Assembly (NCBI RefSeq): GCF_028641065.1
Contig: NC_073396.1
Coordinates: 18,910,001-18,974,000 of the forward strand
DNA: 64,000 bases
Direction of reading: 5' to 3'
Source: Leucoraja erinacea
Taxonomy: Eukaryota
How positions within the stretch are numbered: position 1 is the stretch's first letter; each line of letters begins with the position of its first letter. Of the stretch, positions 32,661-50,700 are shown in pieces. Both the position numbers and the translations under genes were made by a program. Under the pieces are notes generated by a model. It made no database searches. It saw nothing but the letters and a program-made list of their open reading frames with translations, and was not told the DNA's origin.

Positions 32661-35600
32661 AGTGGGCCGATGGGCCTGTTTCTGTGCTGCGGGGCTTTAT
32701 GACAGCAGGATATTACTGCAACTGCCCAGACCCAATACCCAGACTTCCCTAACCATCTTTGGCCTCACAGCGCCAGAGACCCGGGTTTGATCCTGACTAC
32801 AAGTGTCTGTACGGATTTTGTACGTTCTCCCAGTAACTGCATGAATTTTCTCTGGGTGGTCCAGTTTCCTCCCACATCCCAAAGACATGCAGGTTTGTGG
32901 GTTAATTGGTTTCTGGTAAATTGTCCTTAATGTGTAGGACAGAACTAATGTACAGGTGATCGTTGGTCGGCCCAGGCTCACTGGGCCAATGGGCCAGTTT
33001 CCAAGCTGTATCTATAAACTAAACTCAATTTCCCACAGTTCCGTGGGATGTGGTACAGAGTTAGGAACCCTGAGAGAAGATGGACTTAGGATGGAGGAGC
33101 AGGAAAGATAATAGGTTGAATAAAAAGAGATAGTCAGGTGGCAGGTAACTTTACAGTCATAGTCACACAGCATGGATGAACGCCCTTCAGCCCAACTTGC
33201 CCATGCTGACCAAGATGCCCCATCTACGCTAGTCCCACTTGCCTGTGTTTGGCCCATATCCATTTAAACCTATCCTATTCATGTACCTGCCACAAAACAA
33301 CCATCTCCAACAAGAGTCTGATCCTCACCATTCAATGGTATTACCGTCCCCAAGTCTTCTACCAACTTGTTGTATGTACTCTTGGCCAGAATGTCATGTG
33401 GACCTGCACAAGGTGTGGCTGGAGAGCAGGTCAGAGGCTAGGTGTCCATGAACAGGTAACTCCCCTCTTGATATCCCAAGGTTCTGCCACCATCTCCCAG
33501 ACACAAGCCAGGCCTGTGCCTTGCAAGGATGAGTGTCATCCCAACAACTCCAAGCTTGGCATTGTCTATGACATAGCAATCCACTTGATCAGCATTCCAT
33601 CGACCAACTGCAACTGCACTCCCTCCATCACCAGCGTAGTGGCTGCCATCAACAAAATGAACTGTAGTTACACTCCTGGGCAAATCTGATCACTTCCCAC
33701 ACCTCTCCTACCACACAGACCAGACTTCCCACCATTAACTCCACCCTCACTTCACGCTGCCTCGGAAAAGCAGTCATAATAATCAAAGATTTGTCCCACC
33801 CCAGTCATTCCTTTTTCTCCTTGCTCCTGTCTGGCAGAAGCTTGAAAGTGTGCACCACCAGACTGAGGAAGTGTTTTCCCCTCTGTTATCAGGCTTTTGA
33901 ATAGTCCTTCCTAGAATACCATCTGATTCACCTCTACCCCATTGCGGACATTGAACTTTGTCTATGGAACTGATGCGCTACAATGCTGAAAACTATCTTC
34001 TGCACTCTGTATGTTCCTTTTTGCTCAACCTAATGTACTTGCGATTGACTTGATTGTATTTATGTGTAGTATTATCTGATCTGTTTGGATAGCATGCAAA
34101 GCAAAGTTTTTCCACTGTACCTCGGTACACGTGACAACAATAAAGCGAAAGGAAAGACAAGGGCAGTCAGTGTGTGACACCTCCATCTGTGGAGACCCCC
34201 CTGAACCACACCCCATCTTGACCTGGATGTAAACTGCTGTTTTTTCATCATCACTGGGTCTGGGCCCAGGGCTGTGACACTTCAACAGGTCAGGGCAAGT
34301 CTGGGCCGATGGCTAAAACTGTACAGAGGGAGTGGTGGTAAACGGAATAAGGAATAAGAATAAGGGATAGGCCATGGGACTGAGATGAGGAAAAACCTTT
34401 TCACCCAGAGAGTTGTGAATCTGTGGAATTCTCTGCCATAGAAGGCAGTGGGGGCCAATTCACTGGATGATTCCAAGATATAGTTAGATTTAGCTCTTCA
34501 GGCTAAGGGGATCAAGGGATATGGGGAAAAAGCCAGAAGGGGGGTACTGATTTTGGATGATCAGCCATGATCATATTGAATGGCGGTGCAGGCTCGAAGG
34601 GCTGAATGGCCTACTCCTGCGCCAATTTTCTGGTTCTATTTTCTATGATTCTATGAATCCTTGTCAAACCTCCGGACAGGGGTGAACGTTCTTTGGCCAT
34701 TTGTTGTAAGATGAGCTGGGAGTTAACCCTGTGCTCTCAACAATCCTTATCCTCAGCAGCACCAGGGCAGGCCATTGGAACAATACCCCATGGCTGCTTA
34801 TCGGAGTTTGCTGAATACAAATTGGCTGCCCATGTTAATTGAATTGAAAAATTGAAAGATATTCCATGGAAACAGGCCCTTTGAATCCAAGCCGCCCATC
34901 AATCACCCGTTCACCACTAATTCTATGTTATCCCACTTTCTCATCCACTCCCTACACTCTCGGGTCAATTTTTACAGAGGCTACAAACCCGCAATTTTGG
35001 GATGTGGGAGGAAACCGGAGCACCCGGAGGAAACCAAATCAGTCACACGGAGAATATGCACTATGCATGTACAAACTGCCTATCCCAAGTAAATATATAA
35101 CAGTCATATTCCCGAACAACATCTGGTGCAGGGAAAGCAAATTTCTAAAATAAAATACAAGTCCCATGAGCTGTTCTTCAAATATTTACTGCTGAATAAA
35201 TAAGCTTTCTGTGGAAGCAACCCATTCTCAATCACAAACATTTCGTGGCCAGTCCTTGGATTGGAGACTGTGTCCTGCCGTCGAACACAGCGGAGTGCTG
35301 ACCCTCTCTCTCTCTCTCTCTCTGTGCTCCCTCTGGTATTGCTGGTGGTGTTCAACCAGTGGTCAGTGGGTGGATGTTCACCTGCCTCAGTGATCTGGCC
35401 TCCACACCCGCGTGCCAGGACCGCAGAAGCTGGGTTGCTGAATATGTTTACCGTGTATAAAGCGTCCTCTGAACAGGTGGGTGAGCTTTGGCTGTATCCC
35501 TGCCAAAAGCATCTCCCCCCCCCCCCCCCCAGAGTCAGGAGGTCGTCATCACTGAGCTGGGCTTTGGTGGATCTAACCACCATCCCCCCCGAGCGATACC

Positions 35601-35892
35601 AAACCTTGCGGAGCGGAGATCAGCAGGCCCGGTGTGGAGCACAGGTTGGGAATGGGCAGGGACATTAAATATACCACATACCAGAGGTTATAGTGAAAAC
35701 GTAATGAAAATATAATCACACACATGACAGAACGAAGAGAGACCAAGGTGCATTTTTGCATAGGTCATCTGGCCATAACGCAGGGCTGCTGTTGGGTGGG
35801 GAGATGGGCGGTGGGAATGTAATAAGTTCCCTCAGTTATAAATCTCTGTAACATTAACGTAATCCGTTTCTAGTCCAAATTTGGTGCACCAT

Positions 35893-38800
35893 TCACTGGG
35901 AAGGGATGCCTTTGTCCTTTTGCTCCAGCTTGTGGCCCACTCCTTCATACGTAGAGTTGTTCAGATTCTGCAAGGTTTTAAGTTTGGTCTCCAGATCCCT
36001 CCTCTGCTCCAGTATTCCTGTCAGTATGTGTAGGGTCTGCAGAACCCCGGGGCTCTCGGACCTGGCAACTGGAGTCCCTGCCGGAGACTCATAGCTCTTT
36101 GAGGGTTTTGCTTTCAACTGAAAAACAGAGAGAGATTTTTAAGAAAAAAATGTTTAGAATCGTGTTTTACATCATCAGAGAACTCCAGAGAACTTGAGAT
36201 ATCAGCAAACATGCAATTATTGTTATGTGGCCAAACACAGTGGTCAATTTAACACAAAGACCAGCAAACGATCAATGAATTATTGATCAATGTCACCAGC
36301 TCCTTACGTGGAGCTCGGAGAAGCAGCAAGCAGAAGCAGAGAGAGAAGAGACTACTGGCTTGAAGGTCCGTGGGAAAGAAGGGGTCCGAGGGAAAAAAAG
36401 TTTAAAACTGAGGAATTTGATTCGTAACTTGGTGAATTATCAGCCAATTTATCAGCCAATATAAACACGGTTGCTCTGGGAGAGCGGCCTTGAGAGGGAA
36501 GTGTGAGTCTTTGGCTCGAGAGTCTTGAGAGAAAAGAGTGAGTCTTTGGCTCGAGAGTCTTCGGCGAGGAGGCTGAGGAGAGGAGACTATGCCAAAAGCT
36601 GGAGAGGACGGGACGCAGTGAACACATGACGGGTAAGATGATTCCGTGTGATGCTTGCAGGATGTGGGAGGCCAGGGACACCGATGGAGCCTCTGCTGCT
36701 ACAACTGTGGTAAGTGTGTCCAGGTTCAGCTCCTGAAGGACCGTGTTGGGGCACTGGAGAAGCAGCTGGATGACCTCAGGGCCATCTGGGATAACGAGAG
36801 TTTCCTGGAGAGAACCTACAGCGAGGTTGTCTCGCCAAGGTTACAGGAAGAATGAAGGTGGGTGACTGAGAGAAAGGGGAGTAACCGTGGAGTGCGGGAG
36901 ACCCAGGCGGCTGTGCCTAATGAAAACAGGTACACCCTCTTGGGAGCTGTCGGGGGAGATGCTTCCAGTCCAATGGACTGCAATGCGAGTTTAGAGAGTT
37001 AGGAAGAAGACTGAAAAGCAGGACTTCTAGGGTGTTTATCTCTGGATTGCCTCCAGTACCTCATGCTAGTGAGGACAGGAACATGGAGATAGGGGATCTG
37101 AATGTGTGGCTGAGGGGCTGTTGCAGGGAGCAAGGATTTAGATTTATAGACCACTGGGATCTCTTCTGGGGTAGGGGTGATCTGTACAAAATGGACGGGT
37201 TACACCTTAACTGGAGGGGGACCGACGTTCTGGCAGGCAGGTTTGCTAGGGCTACACGTGTGGGTTTAAACTAAATGGTGGGGGGGAGGGATTGACAAAT
37301 TGGGAGTATAAAGATGGAGTTAAAGGGAAAGTGATTACAGGAAAAGTTACAAAAGACTCCCGAATTAATGGGAAGGAAAGTCCGAGAAGGGATAAGAGAA
37401 TAAAGTCAGGGTCAATAGGGACTGGAGTGAGAGGGGAGGTGAATACCGAAGTCAAAGTGTTGTACATAAATGCGTGAAGTATAAGAAATAAAGTGGATGA
37501 GCTTGAGGCTCAATTAGAAATTGGCAAGTATGATGTAATGGAAATTACAGCGACATGGCTGCAAGAGGGCCAGGCTGGGAACTGAATATTCAAGGGTATA
37601 CGTCCTATCGAAAAGACAGACAGGTGGGCAGAGGGGTGGGATAGCTCTGTTGGTGAGGAATGAAATTCATTCACTGGCAAAGGGTGACATTGAAACAGGA
37701 GATGTGGAGTTAGTATGGATAGAACTAAGGAATTGTAAGGGTAAAAAGACCCTAATGGGACATCTACAGGCCCATAAACAGTAGCCTGGATATAGGGTGC
37801 AAGTTGAATCAAGAGTTAAAATTGGCATGCGTAAAGGTAATGCTATGGTTGTTATGGGAGATTTCAACATGCAGGTAGACTGGGAAAATCAGGTTGGTAC
37901 TGGACCAGAAGGGAGTTTGTGGAGTGCCTCCGTGAGGGATTCTTAGAGCAGCTTGTACTGGAGCCATCCAGGGAGAAGGCAATTCTGGATTTAGTGTTGT
38001 GTAATGAACCTGATTTGATAAGGGAACTTGAGGTTAAGGAGCCATTAGGAGGTAGTGACCATAATATGATAAGTTTTAATCTACAATTTGAGAGAGAGTA
38101 GGATAAATCGGAGGTGTCAGCATTACAGTTAAACAAAGGGGCTATGGAGCCATGAGGGAGCAGCTGGCCAAAGTTGACTGGAAAGATACCCTAGCAGGGA
38201 TGATAGTGGAACAACAATGGCAGGTATTTCTGGGAATAACACAGAAGGTGCAGAATCAGTTCATTCCGAAGAGGAAGAAAGAGCAACAGAAGATAACTAA
38301 AAATGCAATACGGGGAGAAAAGATGAGGTACGAAGGTAAGCTAGCCAAGAATATAAAGGAGGATAGTAAAAGCTTCTTTAGGTATGTGAAGAGGAAAATA
38401 TTAGTTAAGACCAAAGTTGGACCCTTGAAGACTGAAAAGGGTGAATTTATTATGGGGAACAAGGAAATGGCAGATGAGTTGAACAGGTACTTTGGATCAG
38501 TCTTCACTTAGGAGAACACAAACAAAATCTCCCTGATGTACTAGCCAGACGATCTGGGGTGACGGAGGAACTGAAGGAAATTCACATTAGGCAGGAAATA
38601 GTGTTGGGTAGACTGATGGGACTGAAGGCTGATAAATCCCCAGGGCCTTGATGGTCTGCATCCGAGGGTACTTAAGGAAGTGGCTCTAGAAATTGTGGAC
38701 ACATTGGTGATAATTTTCCAATATTCTATAGATTCAGGATCAGTTCCTGTGGATTGGAGGGTAGCTAATGTTATCCCACTTTTTAAGAAAGGCAGGAGAG

Positions 38801-40940
38801 AAAACGGAATTATAGACCAGTTAGCCTGACATCGGTGGTAGGGAAGATGCTGGAGTCAATCATAAATGATGAAATAGCTGCACATTTGGATAGCAGTAAC
38901 AGAATCAGTCCGAGTCAGCATGGATTTACGAAGGGAAAATCATGCTTGACTAATCTTCTGGATTTTTTTGAGGATGTAACTAGGAAAATGGACAAGGGAG
39001 AGCCAGTGGATGTAGTGTACCTGGACTTTCAGAAAGCATTTGATAAGGTCCCACATAGGAGATTAGTGGGCAAAATTAGGGCACATGGTATTGGGGCTAG
39101 AGTGCTGACATGGATAGAAAATTGGTTGGCAGTCAGGAAATAAAGAGTAGGGATTAACGGATCCCTTTCAGAATGGCAGGCAGTGACTAATGGGGTACCA
39201 CAAGGCTCGGTGCTGGGACATCAGCTATTTACAATATATATTAATGATTTAGATGAAGGGATTACAAGTAACATTATTAAATTTTCAGATGACATAAAGC
39301 TGGGTGGCAGTGTGAACCGTGAGGATGCTATGAGAATGCAGGGTGACATGGACAGGTTGGGTGAGTGGGCAGATGCATGGCAGATGCAGTTTAATGTGGA
39401 TAAATGTGAGGTTAGCAAAAATAGGAAGGAAGATTATTATCTAAATGGTGTCAAGTTGGGAAAAGAGGAAATGCAACGGGATCTGGGGGTCCTTGTTCAT
39501 CTGTCAATGAAAGTAACCATGCAGGTACAGCAGGCAGTGAAGAGAGCGAATGGCATATTGACCTTCATAACAAGAGGTGTTGAGTATAGGAGCAAAGAAG
39601 TCCTTCTGCAGCTGTACAGGGCCCTAGTGAAATCACACCTGGAATATTGTGTGCAATTTTGGTCTCCAAATTTGAGGAAGGACATTCTTGCTATTGAGGG
39701 AGTGCTGCGTAGGTTCACAAGGTTAATTCCCGGGATGGCGGGACTGTCATATGCTGAGAGAATGGAGTGGCTGGGCTTGTATACTCTGGAATTTTAGAAG
39801 GATGAGAGGGTATCTTATTGAAACATATAAGATTATTAAGGGTTTGGACACACTAGAGGCAGGAAGCATGTCCCCAATGTTGGGGGAGTCCAGAACCAGG
39901 GGCCACAGTTTTAGAATAAGGGGTAAGCCATTTAGAACGGAGATGAGGAAACACTTTTTCACATAGAGAGTTGTGAGTCTGTGGAATTCTCTGCCTCAGA
40001 AGGCAGTGGAAGCCGGTATTCTGGAAACTTTCAAAAGAGAGCTAGATAGGGCTCTTGAAGATAACGGAGTCAAGGGATATGGGGAGAAGGCTGGAACGGG
40101 GTACTGATTGTAGATGATCAGCCATGATCACATTGAATGGCGGTGCTGGCTAGAAGGGCCGAATGGCCTACTCCTGCACCTATTGTCAGAGAGAAATGGG
40201 AGGGATTTTCATCCACAGAATCGTTTTCTCTTCAGTTTTGACCTCCAGATGCACACATCTCATGATTTGAAAGCTTGTTGTTGGAGATCCAAACAGCGTG
40301 CAGCGTGACCAGTGGTGAGAACCCACCCTGCTGGGATGCTTGTGGCATCCACCTGAACTTGTTTGGAGGGCACAGGGATGGGGGAAGGGATGTGAGACAG
40401 CAGTTAGTGGGATACGCTGCCTTTGTGGTGAGTGAGGGTGGGTGAAGGGATGTGGGACTGACGAGTTGGGAGGACATGCCGTGGTTGTGGTGAGGAGAGC
40501 TGGGGAAAGGATATGGGAGGGAATGTGGAACTGGACAGGTGGGAAAACATGCTGCCATTGTGGGGAGGGGAATGGGGGTAGAAATGTGGGATGACATGGG
40601 AGGGATGTGGGATGAGACGCTGCAGTTGTGTTGGTGGGAGGGGGAAGGGATGGGGAAAAGACGACATGGGAGGGATGTGGGAGCACATGCTGCCATTTTG
40701 GTGAGGGACCACAGTGAGGTGGGTGCAGGGCATTGCCTGCCATACCTTCCCTCCATTCAGTCTCCGCAGCAGCAGATGGAGCCATAAGGCCAGGGGCAGC
40801 ACAGCCAGGAAGCCGAAGAAGTAGAGCCAGGCATGGGCCTCCTCCTCGTCAGCGAAGCAGAGGCTGTGGAGAGGGAAGGCCAGGCAGTACTGAGGCTTGG
40901 CCTCATTCATGCCGAACAAGTCTTTGAGAAAGAGGTCCAT
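35893..40940 (-). CDS. Unidentified two-exon gene for a putative 139-aa single-pass membrane protein with a C-terminal coiled coil. Exons 40940-40746 and 36117-35893
   Basis: Exon 1 has ATGG, strong GC3 bias, the hydrophobic run AWLYFFGFLAVLPLALWLHLLL followed by RR, and a phase-0 donor AAG|GTATGG. Exon 2 follows a long pyrimidine tract plus CAG and is open in phase 0 for 74 aa. No homologue recognised and no clear polyA signal seen. Confidence 0.6.
36296..40187 (+). mobile_element. Near-full-length inactive CR1-clade (HER1-like) LINE: ORF1 (zinc finger/leucine zipper plus SGNH esterase) and ORF2 (AP endonuclease plus reverse transcriptase)
   Basis: ORF1 pieces CDAC, CGKC..LLKDRVGALEKQL and YKMDGLHLN. 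ORF2 pieces LDLVL..GSDHN, YLDFQKAFDKVPH, GVPQGSVLG, FSDD and LEYCVQFWSP. CR1 3' tail. Multiple stops, frameshifts and internal deletions. Weak possible TSD aatgtca/attgtca. Confidence 0.95.
40330..40735. repeat. Degenerate G-rich tandem repeat (GGGAGGGATGTGGGA / ACATGCTGCCATT units)
   Basis: Several imperfect units of ~60 bp beside the donor of the unidentified gene. Confidence 0.65.
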
Positions 40941-41029
40941 GGACGAGCTGCAGTCAGCTGTACGGTGGGGCAAGGAGGACAAGGTGGACTTCAGCCGGGA
41001 GAGCAGCCATGAGGTCCACAGCTGGAGCC

Positions 41030-41730
41030 TGAAGTCACCGACGCCTGTGCATGACGTCACAAAGCGTCACCATGTGCACTCCAATCACAGCGCGCTGCAT
41101 GTGTCATGTAATCGCATCGTTGCAACACGACGTCATGGCGTCGCACACGTGACTGCCCAGTTGCACCGTATATCGTCGCCGCGGCCCGTGATGCAAACGT
41201 CACTGAACCGTCGTTACGTCATCGGTTCATTCATGAGAGCTGCTGCTCGCCCACAATGCCCCGCGAAGGAAGCCGTCTTCCGGTCTCCATGGAAACCGGG
41301 CCTAAGGGTCGAGGGCACAGAAACAGCCTGCGGTTCGCTTAGAGCGACGGGAACACCGCGCGGGGTGACGGCCTCGGCGGACCCCGGTCACCGGCGCCAT
41401 GTCCTTCAGAGACCTGAGGAGTAAGAGCCTGGGCCCGGGGAGGAGGCTGTGGGGAATGAGCCGCCGCTCGGACACCGCGGGCCCGGCCGGAGAACCTCCC
41501 CCGGGTGACGCTTGGACTCTGTCGCTCCCGGTGCTGGGCAAGGGGCGGCGGCCGGGAGCGCGGGTCTGCTCTGTCCTGGCCTCGGTCCATGACCGCAGGG
41601 GCAACCGGGTGGTCAGGCCATGGAGCGGTGCCGGGCCGCCCTGTTTTTGTACCCAGTCGGCTGCGGGGCTCGACATCTCTGCTGCCGGGTCCCGTGGATT
41701 GTGTGAGTGGCGGGGAGGGAGGTGCGGAAC
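41030..41730. promoter_or_regulatory. CpG island; CLUAP1 promoter, probably bidirectional, with an RFX X-box (41283-41296), CRE (41052-41059) and CCAAT (41081)
   Basis: GTCTCCATGGAAAC fits the X-box consensus ~100 nt upstream of the CLUAP1 ATG. TGACGTCA plus several further ACGTCA motifs. High CpG density. Confidence 0.78.
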
Positions 41731-44700
41731 GTGCAAAGTCATGTTTTTGTCATTTGCTCCGACAACGGGACGATGCACCGGGCCTGGAAACAATGCAAAT
41801 GGATAATATATAATGAAAAATAATATTATTTTCCTAGGCTGAGGGTCGGCTGCACAGCTCACCCGGTCGATGGGATAACGCGAGTATTTTGACAGCATTT
41901 GTACCTGCCAGAGGAGGTAGTTGAGGCAGGAACTATAACAACATTTAAACGACATTTGGATATGTACTGATAGGAATGGTTTAGGGGGTCAAATGCAGGC
42001 AGGTGGGTCTACTCTAGATTATAGCTGCCTCAACTATCCCGCTGGCAGCTCATTCCACCTACCTGACACATTTAGTTTATGGTCACACGTACCGAGGTAC
42101 AGTGAAAAGCTCTTTGTTGCGTGCTAATCAGTCAGCAAAACGACTGTACACTATTACAATCATAGCCGTCCTCAGTGGACAAACACAGGATAAAGGGAAT
42201 AACATTTAGTGCAAGGTAAAGTTCGATTAAAGATGGTCCGAGGGTCTCCAATGAGGTAGATGGGAGATCAGGACCTCTCGTTAGTTAGTGAAAGGACGGC
42301 TCAGTTGCCTGATAACAGTGGGAAGAAACTGTCTCTGAATCTGGAGGTATGCGTTTTTGGACTTCTGCACCTCTTACCTGATGGGAGAGAGGAGAATAGG
42401 GAGTGAGACTTGATTATGCTGGTGACCTTGCCGAGGCAGCGTGAAGTTAGTGTTTGAGTTAAGAACTAGTTCTGCCAGGGGAGTCGGGGTATTGGTGTAT
42501 CTTCGTATGATATCTGCCTCGGGGCGAACTCCACTCTGTAGTCCGGATCCCCGGCTGTCCATTGACATTGTCTGTTGCATTAATACTGATTATCTGCTAT
42601 CATTTGTTCCCTGCAGACTTTACCGAAATGATGAGGGCTCTGGGATATCCTCGTCTCATCTCCATGGAAAACTTCCGGACTCCAAACTTTCCTCTGGTTG
42701 CTGAAATTCTCATTTGGCTTGTGAAAAGGTTTGTGACCTAACAGATGTATCAGGTTATAAATCATAGTTAGATTGACTTGCATAAAGCTGGAGTAGGCCT
42801 TGCAGTTTCCAAGAGCTAGCACTGTGGCCAATCCATCGCACAGACCAGTCTCCCCACCATCGACTCCATCTCCATCACTCAGCCAACGTCATCAATGACC
42901 ATTCACACCCCGGTCATTCCTCCACCTCCCGTTGGGCGAAAGATATAAAAACGCCAGATTTAGAAACAGCTCCTTCCCCGCAATTATCAGGCTACAGAAC
43001 GATCCTCTCATAAGCGAGGTTGTAGTCCCAATCTTCCCGCATACCTCATTGTGCACTTACACTTTCTTTTACACACACTTTCTCTGTAGCTGTAAGACTA
43101 TATTCTGCAACACTATATTCTGCCCTCTGGTTGCCTTTTTTTTCTTTGCACTACCTGTTGTACTCGTGTACAGTATGATTTGACTGGATAGCTCATAAAG
43201 ATTTTCATCGTATCTTTATACACGTGACGACAATAATAATAAGCAACTGGTTGGTAACAACATTTCTCTATGCGTGCCCTATTTATTGTGAAACTGAGCC
43301 CCTTCAACAAAAGAAAGAGTAGCTGGAGGAGCTCACCTGAAGAAGGGTCCCGATCCGAAATGGCGCCTGTCCTTTCCCTCCACAAATGCAGCCTGTCCTG
43401 CTGAATTCTTGCGGCACTGTGTTTTGCTCCAGACTGCAGCATCTGCAGTTGCTGGTGTTCCCAGTGAGATTGCTGCTGGGTGCAGCCAGAGGTGATGGAG
43501 GTAATGTGAATGGAGCGGTAACTGATGGTGCCTGTGTTTTGTCGCCAGGTACGAGCCTCAGACCGACATCCCCACGGATGTGGACACCGAGCAAGACCGG
43601 GTCTTCTTCACCAAAGCTGTTGCTCAGTTCATGGTAAGCATCGAGACACGGGAGATCAGACGTAAGATGTAGGAGAAGAATTAGGCAATTTGACCAATTG
43701 AGTCTGCTCAAGCCTTGGCAACATACCCAGCATCAAACCCAGGCCAGGGTGTGAGGCAAGCAGCACGGCGCAGTTGCTGGGTAAGGAGGAGACGGTTTGT
43801 GATGGTATTTGCCTTATTGCATTGCAGGCTACCAAAGCTCACATTAAACTCAACACCAAGAAGCTGTACCAAGCCGATGGGTATGCAGTGAAGGAGCTGT
43901 TGAAGGTCACCACTGTCCTGTACAACGCCATGAAGACAAAGCGAATGGACACAAACAATGATGTCGAGGAAGAGGGTTCCAAGTTCAAGTTTGACTTGGG
44001 GTCAAAGGTGAGCTGCGGGGAATGAATCCATGTGGCTGTGGGGTGTAAGAGTCACTCGTTCACTGTGGCCCACAGCGCGGGAGTGGCTATTGTTTAATGA
44101 CTAATGGTAAACAAGAGAAGTGGAGGGGGGTTAAAATCGCCTGAAATGTACTCTGCAAGAGGTTTCCTTGGAACCAGCAGTCTACAGTCACTGGTGTTTG
44201 GTGCTTTCAGCTCCCCTTCTCAGTTCGTCAATTTTCCGATCTTGCGCTGCGTTTAAACTGAAGGTTTATTTAACACATTGACTTTACTGCACAGTAACCG
44301 AATGGTTGCCCACTCACCTGGCCATGTAGATGTGAGGTTTTAATCTCACTTTAGGGGCAGCGTAATTCAGTCTGGGGCAAACCTGGAGGATTCTGTAAAA
44401 TGTTTATGTAAAACATGAGTGTATATGTTTCCAGCACCCCAGATGAGGGATTTCCCTACTGTTTTTGTCACCATGCTTTCACTGTAATAATGTTTCACAA
44501 ACGCTGACTTACAGCATTACTATTTTCTTACTGGTCACAGATTTCAGATCTGAAAACTGCAAGACAACTAGCCTCGGAGATAACCTCCAAAGGAGCAACC
44601 GTGTTTGATTTACTGGGAAAGGAAGTGGATCTAAGGGTGAGTTTTCAGAAGCTAATTGTCTGTTAATTATAAACAACAATAAATGTTGCACGATTTGCAA

Positions 44701-47700: not shown

Positions 47701-50700
47701 GCTGTCTGCACTCATCTCTCATTAACCAGGTGAGGTGGGAAAGCTGAGTGCCAGTTAGCGAAGGGGAAGTGGGGTGGTTGGAGGTGGCAGATGTCTACAT
47801 TTGAACAGGAAGCACTCTGTTGTATTTCAGGCCGGCTTTCATGGACGAGTATGAGAAGATCGAGGAGGATCTACAGAAACAGTACGAGAGCTATGTGGAG
47901 AAATTCCGGAACCTGTGCTACCTGGAGCAGCAGCTCGAGGACCTGCACAGGATGGAGCAGGAGAGGTTTGAGGTAGGTGTTGACCTTACTCCCGCCCGGC
48001 AGAAGTTACAGAAAACACACACGTCCTTATAGGAACAGCTTCTTCCCCTCTCGTATCAGGGTTCGAAATGGTCCTTCCATAAGCTAGGGTACTGCCCCAT
48101 TCACCTCTGCGAACATTGGACTTTGTCTCTGAAACTGATGCGCTACAATGCAAAAAACTATATTCTGCACTTTATAGTTTCCCCTTTGCTCTATCAGTTG
48201 TACTTCAGTTTGACTTGTGTTTATGATGGGTACAGTGCCTTCCATAATGTTTGGGACATAGACCCATAATTTATTTATATGCCTCTGTACTCCACAATTT
48301 GAGATTTGTATTTTTTTTAAATCACGTGGTTAAAGTGCACATTGTCAGATTTTATTAAAGGGTATTTTATACATTTTGGTTTCACCATGTCGAAATTACA
48401 GCTGTGTTCATACATAGTTCCCCCATTTCAGGGCACCATAATGTTTGGGACACATGGCTTCACAGGTGTTTGTAATTGCTCAGGTGTGTTTAAATGCCCC
48501 CTTAATGCAGGTATAAGAGAGCTCTCAGCACATTGTCTTTCCTCCAGTCTTTCCCTCACCTTTGGAAACTTTTATTGCTGTTTATCAACACGAGGACCAA
48601 AGTTGTGTCAATTAAAGTCAAAGAAGCCATTATGAGACTGAGAAACAAGAAAACTGTCAGAGACATCAGCCAAACCTTAGGCTTAACAAAATCAACATTT
48701 AGAACATCATTAAGAAGAAAGATCACTGGTGAGCTTACTAATTGCAAAGGGACTGGCTGGCCAAGGAAGACCCCCACTGCTGATGACAGAAGAATTCTCT
48801 CTTTTATAAAGAAAAATCCCCAAACATCTGTCCGACAGATCAGGAACACTCTTCAGGAGTCGGGTGTTGATTTGTCAATGACCATTGTCTGCAGAAGACT
48901 TCATGAACAGAAATATAGAGGCTACACTGCAAGATGTAAACCACTGATTAGCCGCAAAAAGAGGATGGCCAGTTTACAGTTCACCAAGACTTAAAAGAGC
49001 AACCACAGTTCTGGAAAAAGGTCTTGTGTACAGATGAGACGAAGATTAACTTATGTCAGAGTGAGGGCAAGAGCAAACTATGGAGGAGCAAAGGAACTGC
49101 CCAAGATCCAAAGCATACCACATCATCTGTGAAACACGGTGGTCGTGGAGGTGTTATGGCCTGGGCATGTATGGCTGCTGAAGGTACTGGCTCACTTATC
49201 GTAATTGATGACACAACTGCTGATGGTAGTACCATAATGAATTCTGAAGTGCATAGATACATCCTATCTGCTCAAGTTCAAACAAATGCCTCAAAACTCA
49301 TTGGCTGGAGGAAAGACTAGGTGCAGAGAGCTCTCTTATACCTGCATTAAGGAGGCAATTAAATACACCCGAGTAATTACAAACACCTATGAAACCATGT
49401 GTCCCAAACATTATGGTGCCCTGAAATGGGGGGACGATGTATAAACACAGCTGCAATTTCTACATGGTGAAACCAAAATGTATAAAAATGGCCTTTATTA
49501 AAATCCAACAATCTGCACTTTAACCACATGTGACTTTCTATTACAAATCTCAAATTTGTGGAGTACAGAGGCAAATAAATAAATGATGGGTCTTTGTCCC
49601 AAACATTATGGAGGGAACTGTATATCTGATCTGTTTGGAATGCATGCAGAACAAAGCTTTCCACTGCACCTTGGTACATGTGACAATAATACACCTAGAT
49701 CTAGGAACATGGATGCAAGAGCCAGGCTGCTGTAAACCCTATGATTATTTCCCCACAAAGGGTTAATTCCTGTCCCGTTCCATCTGAGATCACGAGCTGA
49801 AGGAAAGTTCAGCTGTGCGGGGGATACGCAGTCCAGCCTTGCCGCTTTTCCGCTCTGCCTGTCACTGACCATTGAGCTGCCTCTTGTACCTGTGGTTAAT
49901 ATTCGGCAGAGTAATACAGAAACTCTTGTTTGCAAAATGCTTTAACCGTGCCTCGTTCTCATGCAACTTGTAAACTGGCATCCGTCTGATCCTCAGGAAA
50001 CTGAAAACACGTTGCGGCTGATGCAGAATAAACTGAAGGAGGAGGAGAAGCGGCTGATGAAAAGCTCTGGTAAAGAGAGAAGCTACTTTTCTGTTGTTCA
50101 TAGATTGCTGTATAATCCACAATGCAGGCACGTGAGCAACTCACTGATCAGTCTGGCCCAGGTATCTGTGGCCACAGCAACTCTGCCCTTGCTGTGGAAT
50201 GTTATAGCTTGACCTTGTGAACACGAGCTGTGGGTGAGCCAAGCAGCTGCTGATTTGCTTCACTTGTCAGCCAGACGGATGCCGCCCTTGGGGTGTTCTT
50301 GCCCCCAGGCACCAGGCGAATGTATCTCATGGTGTTGGCACCACAGAGCCATACCTGATTGCACTGAGCACCAGTCTATTCTGGAAACACACTGACTGAG
50401 ATAGTGGATTCAGAAGATCACATTGTGATTCATAGGATCTGGTGTTCCCTAGATCCAGCCTGTACTATAAAAGCAGCTTCCAGGTCCTGCTCTGCCTCCC
50501 CTTGGAACCTTCTGTCGGTGTCCCATCATCTGCCTCCATCTACCCCTTCTTATATCTTCACCTCTTGAGTCCAGGGCTACCTTGTCCAGATCTCCATGTT
50601 TGAATCTTGGTTCCCCTGTCAGCTCACCAAGGTGACTTGCATCTACTGAACTCTGGTAAACGTACTCTCGAATCACCACAAAGTGTCTTTACTTCATTCA

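Follow-up and report, generated by a model that had tools for sequence, protein, structure and literature searches.

A spliced orphan gene divergent from CLUAP1 in the skate Leucoraja erinacea, encoding a predicted single-pass membrane protein

Results

In a 64,000-nt stretch of the genome of the skate Leucoraja erinacea (hereafter the window; GCF_028641065.1, NC_073396.1, positions 18,910,001 to 18,974,000), a minus-strand gene with two coding exons lies head-to-head with CLUAP1. A sequence-only reading of the locus had joined two minus-strand ORF segments in phase 0 into 139 residues. Canonical splice sites and two junction-spanning Logan contig proteins bear this out, and the gene is confirmed as real, spliced and uncharacterised. 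The features of the locus are:

35265..35892, minus strand: probable 3' UTR, with an approximate end estimated from the lengths of contigs
35893..36117, minus strand: exon 2 coding part, residues 66-139 and stop (Ser/Pro linker, amphipathic helix, tail); contigs of two runs, codon test
35959..36054, minus strand: predicted coiled-coil-forming helix, residues ~87-118; heptad test, model
36118..40745, minus strand: GT-AG intron of 4628 nt, with LINE remnants on the plus strand
40746..40940, minus strand: exon 1 coding part, residues 1-65 (N-terminal segment, membrane helix, basic patch); contigs, reads, codon test
40767..40829, minus strand: predicted transmembrane helix, residues ~38-58; hydropathy, flanking charge, model
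40857..40886, minus strand: Cys19-Cys28 hydrophobic segment, predicted beta-hairpin, possible disulfide loop; model strands 18-21 and 26-29
40941..41036, minus strand: 5' leader, open in frame with exon 1; limit at 41036 set by one contig and raw reads
40954..41010, minus strand: out-of-frame uORF of 18 codons within the leader
41052..41221, no strand: CRE cluster, in which a full palindromic CRE (41052-41059) stands among six half-site counts
41283..41296, no strand: X-box, a 14-bp imperfect palindrome
41399..41420, plus strand: CLUAP1 first coding exon, the divergent partner; contigs end at 41420 and the RefSeq N-terminus maps there

The coding exons, 40940-40746 and 36117-35893, are joined through GT/AG sites: the 195-nt coding part of exon 1 ends in AAG/GT, and exon 2 begins at 36117 at a CAG acceptor after a pyrimidine tract and closes with a TGA stop at 35893. 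The LINE remnants in the intron show as RVT_1 matches (38787-39140; 39144-39794). P0001 and P0002, the proteins encoded by two Logan contigs (973 and 1144 nt), match the joined frame across the junction at 137 and 136 of 139 residues, respectively; both contigs are too short to hold the intron and thus give independent support for splicing. Nine raw RNA reads over exon 1 terminate at the donor, four of them only partly aligned; most are first-mate-plus, the pattern that a minus-strand RNA would give when the library is stranded. The check proposed from sequence, RNA across the 40746/36117 junction, was borne out in part: two short contigs encode the spliced protein and reads reach the donor, but no joint junction row occurred among the contig matches listed, in a table swamped by repeat-derived contigs, and the junction letters did not appear in the reads. 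Exon 1 was found in four of four contig runs guessed to be RNA (three studies; the record lists no RNA-holding run) and in one raw run, where it was scarce (9 of 12.9 million reads). One contig runs 11 nt past the donor, so unspliced molecules exist. The gene is single-copy; no processed copy, paralogue or repeat origin was found in the genome.

The RNA 5' end lies near 41036, and the main ATG, which follows the uORF, has a weak context. At the other end of the transcript, contig pieces cover 35280-35439, 35336-35504 and 35536-35985; a search for a canonical polyadenylation hexamer there found only a weak variant, at 35190.

Synonymous codon choice is of coding type in both exons, in the splice-joined frame. 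The codon score of exon 1 (15.9) was reached by 0/1000 stop-free shuffles and 0/811 genomic tiles and is mid-range for real genes, with 54 of 116 held-out GPCR tiles scoring no higher; that of exon 2 (3.1) was reached by 6/1000 shuffles and 13/577 tiles, many of the 13 being real exons, retroelement frames or exon 1 of the same gene. When the inferred 1144-nt transcript was dinucleotide-shuffled 2000 times, an ATG-initiated ORF of at least 139 codons arose in 66 shuffles, and one with an equally hydrophobic helix in 0/2000.

Exon 1 is free of indels and stops in all three related DNA sets (organisms B, C and D), an observation of modest weight at their low divergence. Its changes relative to these organisms comprise four silent and four replacement (binomial p 0.11-0.19, from the few changes of exon 1 only), or six and eight with a 22-codon upstream extension included (p 0.13-0.25); purifying selection on exon 1 is not significant, nor, at so few changes, is dN/dS significantly below 1. 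The two replacement changes confined to C or to D lie inside the membrane helix and are conservative, and the codons for Cys19 and Cys28 are unchanged or silently changed in B, C and D. Replacement variants at residues 9, 12, 74 and 128 segregate among RNA data of the same label. The in-frame codon at 41006-41004, 22 codons upstream of the main ATG, is CTG in the skate and organism B and ATG in C and D; on this comparison, the upstream ATG of C and D appears to have been lost in the skate. The extension is Ser/Leu/Arg-rich and non-hydrophobic, with three K/R and one D/E as read in the window; its GC3 is 0.86, its codon score is not significant (108/1000 shuffles), and D has one of its arginines replaced.

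The protein is predicted to be single-pass and N-out, with a basic juxtamembrane patch and a cytosolic four-heptad helix. Hydropathy over 19 residues peaks at 2.06 (residues 39-40 onward), net charge is -4 before the helix and +6 after it, and a single-sequence fold model (overall pTM 0.32) places a helix at residues 32-63, with pLDDT about 90, and another at 88-133. The heptad a/d string of residues 87-114 was matched by 17/1000 shuffles of the C-terminal part. These values agree with the hydrophobic helix and heptad-like C-terminus first described from the letters, the C-terminus being cytosolic by prediction. The protein has a single hydrophobic helix and the best 8-residue hydropathy of the extension is 0.55, so on hydropathy a cleaved signal peptide was not found.

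The family had gone unrecognised in the sequence-only reading, and protein, Pfam and PDB searches likewise gave no match to a characterised family. Among 5.8 billion proteins, exon 1 and whole P0001 as queries retrieved no homologue besides P0001 itself. The same collection holds RefSeq CLUAP1 proteins of skates, rays and sharks, so the gene is unannotated and either lineage-restricted or fast-evolving; the orphan protein is missing from three skate RefSeq proteomes that do contribute a CLUAP1 to it. No Pfam family was found on the exons, the extended exon 1 or the whole protein (the last up to E = 1), PDB sequences gave a single match at E 1.7, and Rfam gave no family over 33000-43000. With the single-sequence model as query, a fold search returned nothing at E 0.001 in the PDB or BFVD, and VIA-align returned generic long helices only (best Z 5.4; 0/48161 at Z 8). 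No relative was found in viral and metagenome contigs; the ESM Atlas gave no usable match, a result that says nothing of absence or novelty. Literature searches found nothing on CLUAP1 in skates. The available portions of the literature on CLUAP1 with X-box and RFX did not have the orphan neighbour as a topic, and those on CLUAP1 with bidirectional promoters and on elasmobranch orphan genes held nothing relevant.

Separately, phmmer against 1.84 billion representatives gave three non-self matches: two CHAT-TPR proteins of bacteria and an ORF made of a 58-residue tandem repeat. We discarded all three, since their scores were sums of weak matches to repeats, with no stretch better than a pairwise E of 3e-4.

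The evidence supports a CpG-island promoter common to the orphan gene and CLUAP1, whose later exons carry the Pfam Cluap1 match. The two ATGs lie head-to-head and 458 nt apart, as anticipated (~460 nt) together with a near-palindromic X-box between them. This X-box is real but nearer CLUAP1, a known IFT-B gene: it lies 102 nt from the CLUAP1 ATG, in the 5' part of one CLUAP1 contig (from 41182), and 342 nt from the orphan ATG, 246 nt upstream of the orphan RNA 5' end. An X-box-like pattern, written after the site was seen, occurs in 4/2000 shuffles of the inter-ATG region; a looser consensus has 6 matches in the whole window against 3.5 expected, and 13/100 shuffles reach 6. CRE half-sites number 6 against 1.6 expected (5/2000 shuffles), and the full site (31/2000 shuffles) stands 15 nt from the orphan RNA 5' end, unchanged in B and C. 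The RNA start near 41036, its spacing from the full CRE and the in-frame upstream ATG in two related organisms are newly seen here. CRE sites are frequent in housekeeping CpG-island promoters. The X-box is closer to CLUAP1 and explicable without a second gene, and the element adjoining the orphan RNA 5' end is the CRE cluster rather than the X-box; hence RFX control of the orphan gene, and its co-regulation with CLUAP1, is conjectural.

Mouse data give this arrangement some context. In the portion of PMC4498915 available, RFX2 targets are considered with an X-box window of -500 to +50 around the transcription start, inside which the skate X-box falls relative to the orphan RNA 5' end, and CREM and RFX2 are described as the two master factors of spermiogenesis, controlling largely separate gene sets. 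RFX2 was bound at both Cluap1 and 1700037C18Rik in mouse testis, yet the knockout table (PMC4498915 Table S1) carries no differential-expression entry for either.

Discussion

The reading we favour, tentatively and at a probability of roughly 0.4, is that this single-copy spliced gene encodes a 139-residue single-pass adaptor, N-out and with a cytosolic coiled coil, that acts most likely in ciliated cells or spermatids. The protein would insert by a signal anchor without a cleaved signal peptide, acidic before the helix and basic after it. Its Cys19-Cys28 loop would then lie on the lumenal or outer side, and its four-heptad helix, carried on a flexible linker, would bind partners or itself in the cytosol. 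The shared promoter may have a low basal output that CREB/CREM, acting on the proximal CRE, and RFX, acting on the X-box, increase. The protein could serve as a tether at the acrosomal, nuclear-envelope or ciliary membrane, a role for which FAM209 and other small, lineage-restricted membrane proteins of sperm offer the analogy. As a whole, a ciliary or sperm role is one that the gene may have.

FAM209, as far as the accessible text of PMC8627553 describes it, is a 170-aa single-pass protein of the spermatid inner nuclear membrane, N-out and C-in, reported in mammals only. It resembles the skate protein, for which this topology is predicted, in being small, lineage-restricted and devoid of a recognisable domain. 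Unlike it, FAM209 carries a cleaved signal peptide and has a Pfam domain, PF15206, of its own; both were looked for in the skate protein and not found, and six sub-threshold PF15206 matches in the genome all fell outside the window. Like RFX/X-box ciliary genes such as CLUAP1/IFT38 of IFT-B, the orphan gene has an X-box within a few hundred bases of its start, but IFT genes are conserved across metazoans (PMC2873420) and the orphan gene has no detectable homologue outside the skate's close relatives.

The favoured reading draws on the splicing, codon-choice and topology results, the intact exon 1 of the three related sets, the X-box inside the RFX2 target window and the CRE cluster. In its favour, too, an uncharacterised gene flanks CLUAP1 in mammals (PMC9902602), and both genes are RFX2 ChIP targets in mouse testis (PMC4498915 Table S1). 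Against it, low presence in all RNA sets examined fits broad weak expression as well as specific expression; the absent homologue leaves no family evidence for function; CREs are common in housekeeping CpG-island promoters and unspliced molecules are present; selection is not significant, four replacement variants segregate, the upstream ATG is lost, and the main ATG stands in a weak context behind a uORF. Also against it, RFX2 binds Cluap1 and the adjoining gene in the mouse without a differential-expression entry for either, and RFX2 and CREM gene sets are largely separate in what is available of PMC4498915.

It is possible, if rather doubtful, that the gene instead encodes a broadly and weakly expressed membrane protein of the ER, Golgi or mitochondria that shares a bidirectional promoter, with the X-box serving CLUAP1 only and no link to cilia or sperm. 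Low-level RNA in every set examined and the position of the X-box, which falls within a CLUAP1 contig at 102 nt from that gene's ATG, would suit such a protein, as would the Ser/Leu/Arg-rich, non-hydrophobic extension of C and D, which we take to resemble a mitochondrial presequence loosely. Yet the ATG of that extension is missing in the skate and B, D has lost one of its arginines, and a conserved housekeeping homologue was found neither in sharks and rays nor in other vertebrates, which is unusual for a basic organelle protein.

We consider it unlikely that the divergent transcript is non-coding or decaying and yields no functional protein, its ORF either being left over from a once-coding gene whose selection has relaxed or having arisen by chance. 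The changed start codon, uORF, weak Kozak context, missing canonical polyadenylation signal, replacement polymorphisms, non-significant dN/dS and absence from three skate RefSeq proteomes that include CLUAP1 would fit this, and codon bias would persist in a recently decayed gene. A chance ORF, however, is hard to square with codon bias in both exons in the splice-joined frame and with the failure of all 2000 shuffles to yield such an ORF with a membrane helix, and the lack of disabling changes in exon 1 in three of three related sets argues, with modest weight at low divergence, against decay.

Less probable again is an orthologue of a named vertebrate gene diverged beyond recognition, the candidates being FAM209, by its similar layout, and C16orf90, on the same side of CLUAP1 in mammals. 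We take C16orf90 to be the orthologue of mouse 1700037C18Rik and to lie head-to-head with CLUAP1, and DUF4644 is presumably its family. The mature codon bias of the skate gene implies an old gene, the layout of FAM209 (170 aa, single-pass, N-out, C-in; PMC8627553, in part) is similar, and the mammalian order is NAA60, C16orf90, CLUAP1 (PMC9902602, in the section available). C16orf90 is alike in being a small uncharacterised gene on the 5' side of CLUAP1 (PMC9902602), bound by RFX2 in mouse testis along with Cluap1 (as 1700037C18Rik; PMC4498915 Table S1), and is known at transcript level only in the available part of PMC10298883. Sequence similarity is nevertheless absent, and the membrane helix belongs to the skate protein. 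Pfam gave no family up to E = 1, and the DUF4644 and FAM209 profiles are silent at the locus; DUF4644 matched neither P0001 nor any part of the genome, the genome result alone not showing absence. The far-side neighbour in the skate is a FAM195/MCRIP gene, not NAA60, and FAM209 has its cleaved signal peptide and its restriction to mammals (PMC8627553, as accessible).

The order of parts also recalls reovirus FAST proteins, which in the accessible text of PMC7830690 have a short ectodomain, helix, basic patch, amphipathic helix and disordered tail. By prediction, the skate protein fits this layout (100-200 aa, a 20-40-residue ectodomain, one helix, a polybasic stretch plus an amphipathic helix), and it comes nearest the p10 type in size, two-cysteine hydrophobic loop, single helix, polybasic patch, amphipathic helix and disordered tail. 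We therefore weighed, as a long shot, a cellular small fusogen acting in gamete or cell-cell fusion: the product of an intron-containing vertebrate gene that would have converged on the FAST layout and whose expression in skate spermatids CREM and RFX would turn on through the CLUAP1 promoter. Its 139 residues, 37-residue N-terminal segment and two cysteines around a hydrophobic 10-residue stretch, then one helix, basic patch, amphipathic helix and disordered tail, follow the FAST order, but the gene is cellular, carries an intron and has no sequence match to the viral proteins, residue 2 is Asp rather than a myristoylation glycine, the helix lacks a palmitoylated di-cysteine beside it (features that PMC7830690, as far as available, calls essential in p14/p15 and p10), and the shared features are mostly generic for N-out single-pass proteins. 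Were it true, cartilaginous fish would have a protein for gamete or cell fusion of a kind not known from other vertebrates.

The adaptor reading stays our preferred one. Whatever its role, the gene was missed by annotation in skates whose adjoining CLUAP1 is annotated, and its mature codon bias without a detectable homologue points to an old, fast-evolving or lineage-restricted protein, predicted to be membrane-bound. If broadly expressed or decaying, it would be an ordinary orphan at a bidirectional promoter. If enriched in testis or ciliated tissue, it would be a new candidate among the small membrane proteins with a part in building sperm or cilia. In that case, orphan genes unrelated to each other would have settled behind the RFX-bound CLUAP1 promoter in skates and mammals alike, making this promoter a cradle for lineage-specific genes.

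A spliced gene opposite CLUAP1

The orphan gene, an unannotated minus-strand gene of 139 codons transcribed away from CLUAP1, has the two-segment ORF proposed in a sequence-only reading, every coordinate of which proved correct. Its coding parts are:

40940-40746, minus strand, exon 1: ATG at 40940, 65 codons, GT donor after 40746
36117-35893, minus strand, exon 2: 36117 to a TGA at 35893, 74 codons, preceded by a pyrimidine tract and CAG

The CLUAP1 ATG lies at 41399, and the two start codons are 458 nt apart, against a claimed spacing of about 460 nt. CLUAP1 is identified by a Pfam match and RefSeq proteins; since a CLUAP1 exon of the window shares 98% identity with CLUAP1 of Amblyraja radiata, and a Leucoraja erinacea isoform matches the window at 100% over its first 82 residues, the source is a skate. 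Two RefSeq CLUAP1 isoforms (488-489 aa) start with 82 residues from CLUAP1 intron 1 (41456-41701) in place of the conserved first exon, and are possibly intron-retention models rather than real isoforms.

Gene order across 1713-64000 is TEDC1 (+), a DUF4615 gene (+), FAM195/MCRIP (-), the orphan gene (-), CLUAP1 (+) and a RAB11FIP3-like gene (-), the last a weak Pfam match (E 0.012) and the first three assigned by Pfam. We take TEDC1 to be a centriole gene and the DUF4615 gene to be C8orf33. This order is unlike the mammalian one, reported as NAA60, C16orf90, CLUAP1 (PMC9902602). Repeats in the window include LINE remnants antisense to the orphan gene in its intron (36924-39794; GDSL/esterase-like and reverse transcriptase matches in broken frames), a Tc1-type transposase fragment in a CLUAP1 intron (48506-48991) and, just inside the orphan-gene intron, degenerate G-rich short repeats (40400-40740), for which DNA contigs of three related organisms, B, C and D, vary in unit number or fit more than one unit.

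The orphan-gene transcript exists and is spliced. Exon 1 as a query matched only P0001, a protein of 139 residues encoded by a Logan contig of 973 nt; its cluster has one further member, P0002, from a 1144-nt contig. The two differ from the joined ORF at 2 and 3 residues and are otherwise equal to it. Both contigs are too short for the 4628-nt intron and thus support spliced RNA, bearing out the proposed joining of the two segments; the evidence for the junction itself comes from these two proteins. Protein and DNA searches of the skate's own genome matched no locus but this one, which rules out a retrocopy as the source of P0001 and P0002. Exon 1 was covered in all four contig runs guessed to be RNA and exon 2 in two of the four; one contig ends at the donor, 40746, with 3 letters unplaced, and another runs 11 nt past it. 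A sample of about 5/100 of one oligo-dT run (12.9 million reads) gave 9 raw reads at 40660-41060, none passing the donor into the intron, 4 matching only partly and most in the direction that a minus-strand RNA would give in a stranded library. The 5' limit of 41036 is common to one contig and the raw reads; we use it as a provisional transcription start, given the small number of reads and the fact that a contig end by itself does not mark a start.

Predicted protein

Hydropathy gives a single hydrophobic helix at about 38-58, flanked by net charges of -4 before and +6 after. By the positive-inside rule, positive charges next to a membrane helix favour the cytosolic side, so the protein is predicted to insert N-out, C-in, with no cleaved signal peptide; two sequons at 118-119 would then be cytosolic and unused. 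A single-sequence AlphaFold model (pLDDT 72, pTM 0.32) puts two helices at residues 32-63 and 88-133, joined by a disordered linker, and ahead of them a small hairpin (18-29) between Cys19 and Cys28. The heptad pattern at 87-114 was matched by 17 of 1000 shuffles.

A shared promoter

The interval between the start codons is a CpG island holding the anticipated X-box, a 14-bp imperfect palindrome at 41283-41296. With the pattern applied, the window has no second such site. The box stands 102 nt from the CLUAP1 start codon and 246 nt from the 5' limit of the orphan-gene RNA. The sequence-only reading had missed a CRE cluster here: a full palindrome lies 15 nt from the RNA 5' limit, and half-sites number 6 where 1.6 would be expected (a count reached in 5/2000 shuffles), with 0 or 1 in other CpG-rich tiles of the window. 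The full CRE is unchanged in B and C; D carries 3 differences of unlisted position, which may or may not fall in the site. We take 1700037C18Rik to be the C16orf90 orthologue, head-to-head with Cluap1. In mouse spermiogenesis, CREM and RFX2 are described as the two sequence-specific master factors, with largely separate gene sets, and Table S1 of that study has both Cluap1 and 1700037C18Rik as RFX2 ChIP targets, neither with a differential-expression entry there (PMC4498915).

Our leading reading, at a probability of about 0.4, is that CREB/CREM and RFX would drive the orphan gene from the back side of the CLUAP1 promoter, the gene's product being a small membrane adaptor that carries a cytosolic coiled coil and works in spermatids or ciliated cells. 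A ciliary role is plausible, with the shared promoter as its one direct support. A protein of some organelle unrelated to cilia is the less probable but foremost competitor, and the X-box needs no second gene to explain it, because RFX factors target IFT genes and CLUAP1 belongs to IFT-B (PMC2873420).

Coding signal and selection

A synonymous codon model was trained on 8714 codons from 30 GPCR matches in the skate's own genome, with stop-free dinucleotide shuffles and, for exon 1, stop-free 65-codon tiles of the window and GPCR flanks as controls. Exon 1 scored 15.9 bits, reached by 0 of 1000 shuffles and 0 of 811 tiles; 54 of 116 held-out GPCR tiles fell at or below this score. Exon 2 scored 3.1, reached by 6/1000 shuffles and 13/577 tiles, and many of those tiles are real exons or frames of retroelements. 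In both exons the signal lies in the splice-joined frame. Shuffles of the inferred transcript yielded an ATG ORF this long in 66 of 2000 cases, and one with an equally hydrophobic helix in none. The orphan gene looks coding, and its strong bias at third codon positions is more in keeping with an old gene than with a recent de novo origin. Downstream of one GPCR match (L016), a stop-free flank tile with a high codon score resembles a further aminergic-receptor helix-6 fragment and may be a broken duplicate.

Selection was compared among the related organisms in exon 1, which has no indels or stops in B (possibly the same species as the window or a sister species), C or D. Its coding part has 8 variable sites (1 from RNA reads only), half silent and half replacement (4 each), a split that does not depart significantly from neutrality (p 0.11-0.19); both cysteines are kept, and the two replacements found in C or D alone (Phe to Leu, Phe to Tyr) lie inside the helix. 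A new detail is position 41006, an in-frame ATG in C and D that would add 22 residues, and CTG in the window and B. The leader is open in frame (GC3 0.86), its own codon score, reached by 108/1000, not being significant. A decaying or non-coding transcript is rather unlikely; it is kept alive by the CTG/ATG change, the weak context of the window's main ATG, an 18-codon uORF upstream of it and four replacement variants among RNA data of the same label.

Relationship to known families

Word-seeded searches of 5.8 billion proteins gave nothing but P0001; three extra phmmer matches among 1.84 billion representatives were rejected as repeat artefacts. The control, a CLUAP1 exon query, recovered RefSeq proteins of skates, rays, sharks and a chimaera, and its cluster contains three skate species; since their CLUAP1 was retrieved and the orphan protein was not, the gene has no protein annotation in those skates. 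For cartilaginous fish that are less closely related, the gene would be either unannotated, too diverged or absent. Pfam, PDB, ESM Atlas and fold searches gave no usable match, upholding the initial impression of no recognised family, and the open literature (subscription journals lay outside the search) yielded nothing on the gene.

That the gene is an orthologue of a named one, diverged past recognition, is improbable, though compatible with the other readings. The orphan gene occupies the position of C16orf90 beside CLUAP1, but the DUF4644 profile, which we take to be the C16orf90 family, does not match its protein. FAM209, as described in PMC8627553, is similar in size and predicted topology but has a domain and signal peptide that the orphan protein lacks. 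A FAST-like fusogen is very improbable: reovirus FAST proteins show a like order of parts (PMC7830690), but their acylation sites are missing here. The orphan protein is placed in none of these three families, and its gene is a real, unannotated membrane-protein gene at a bidirectional promoter.
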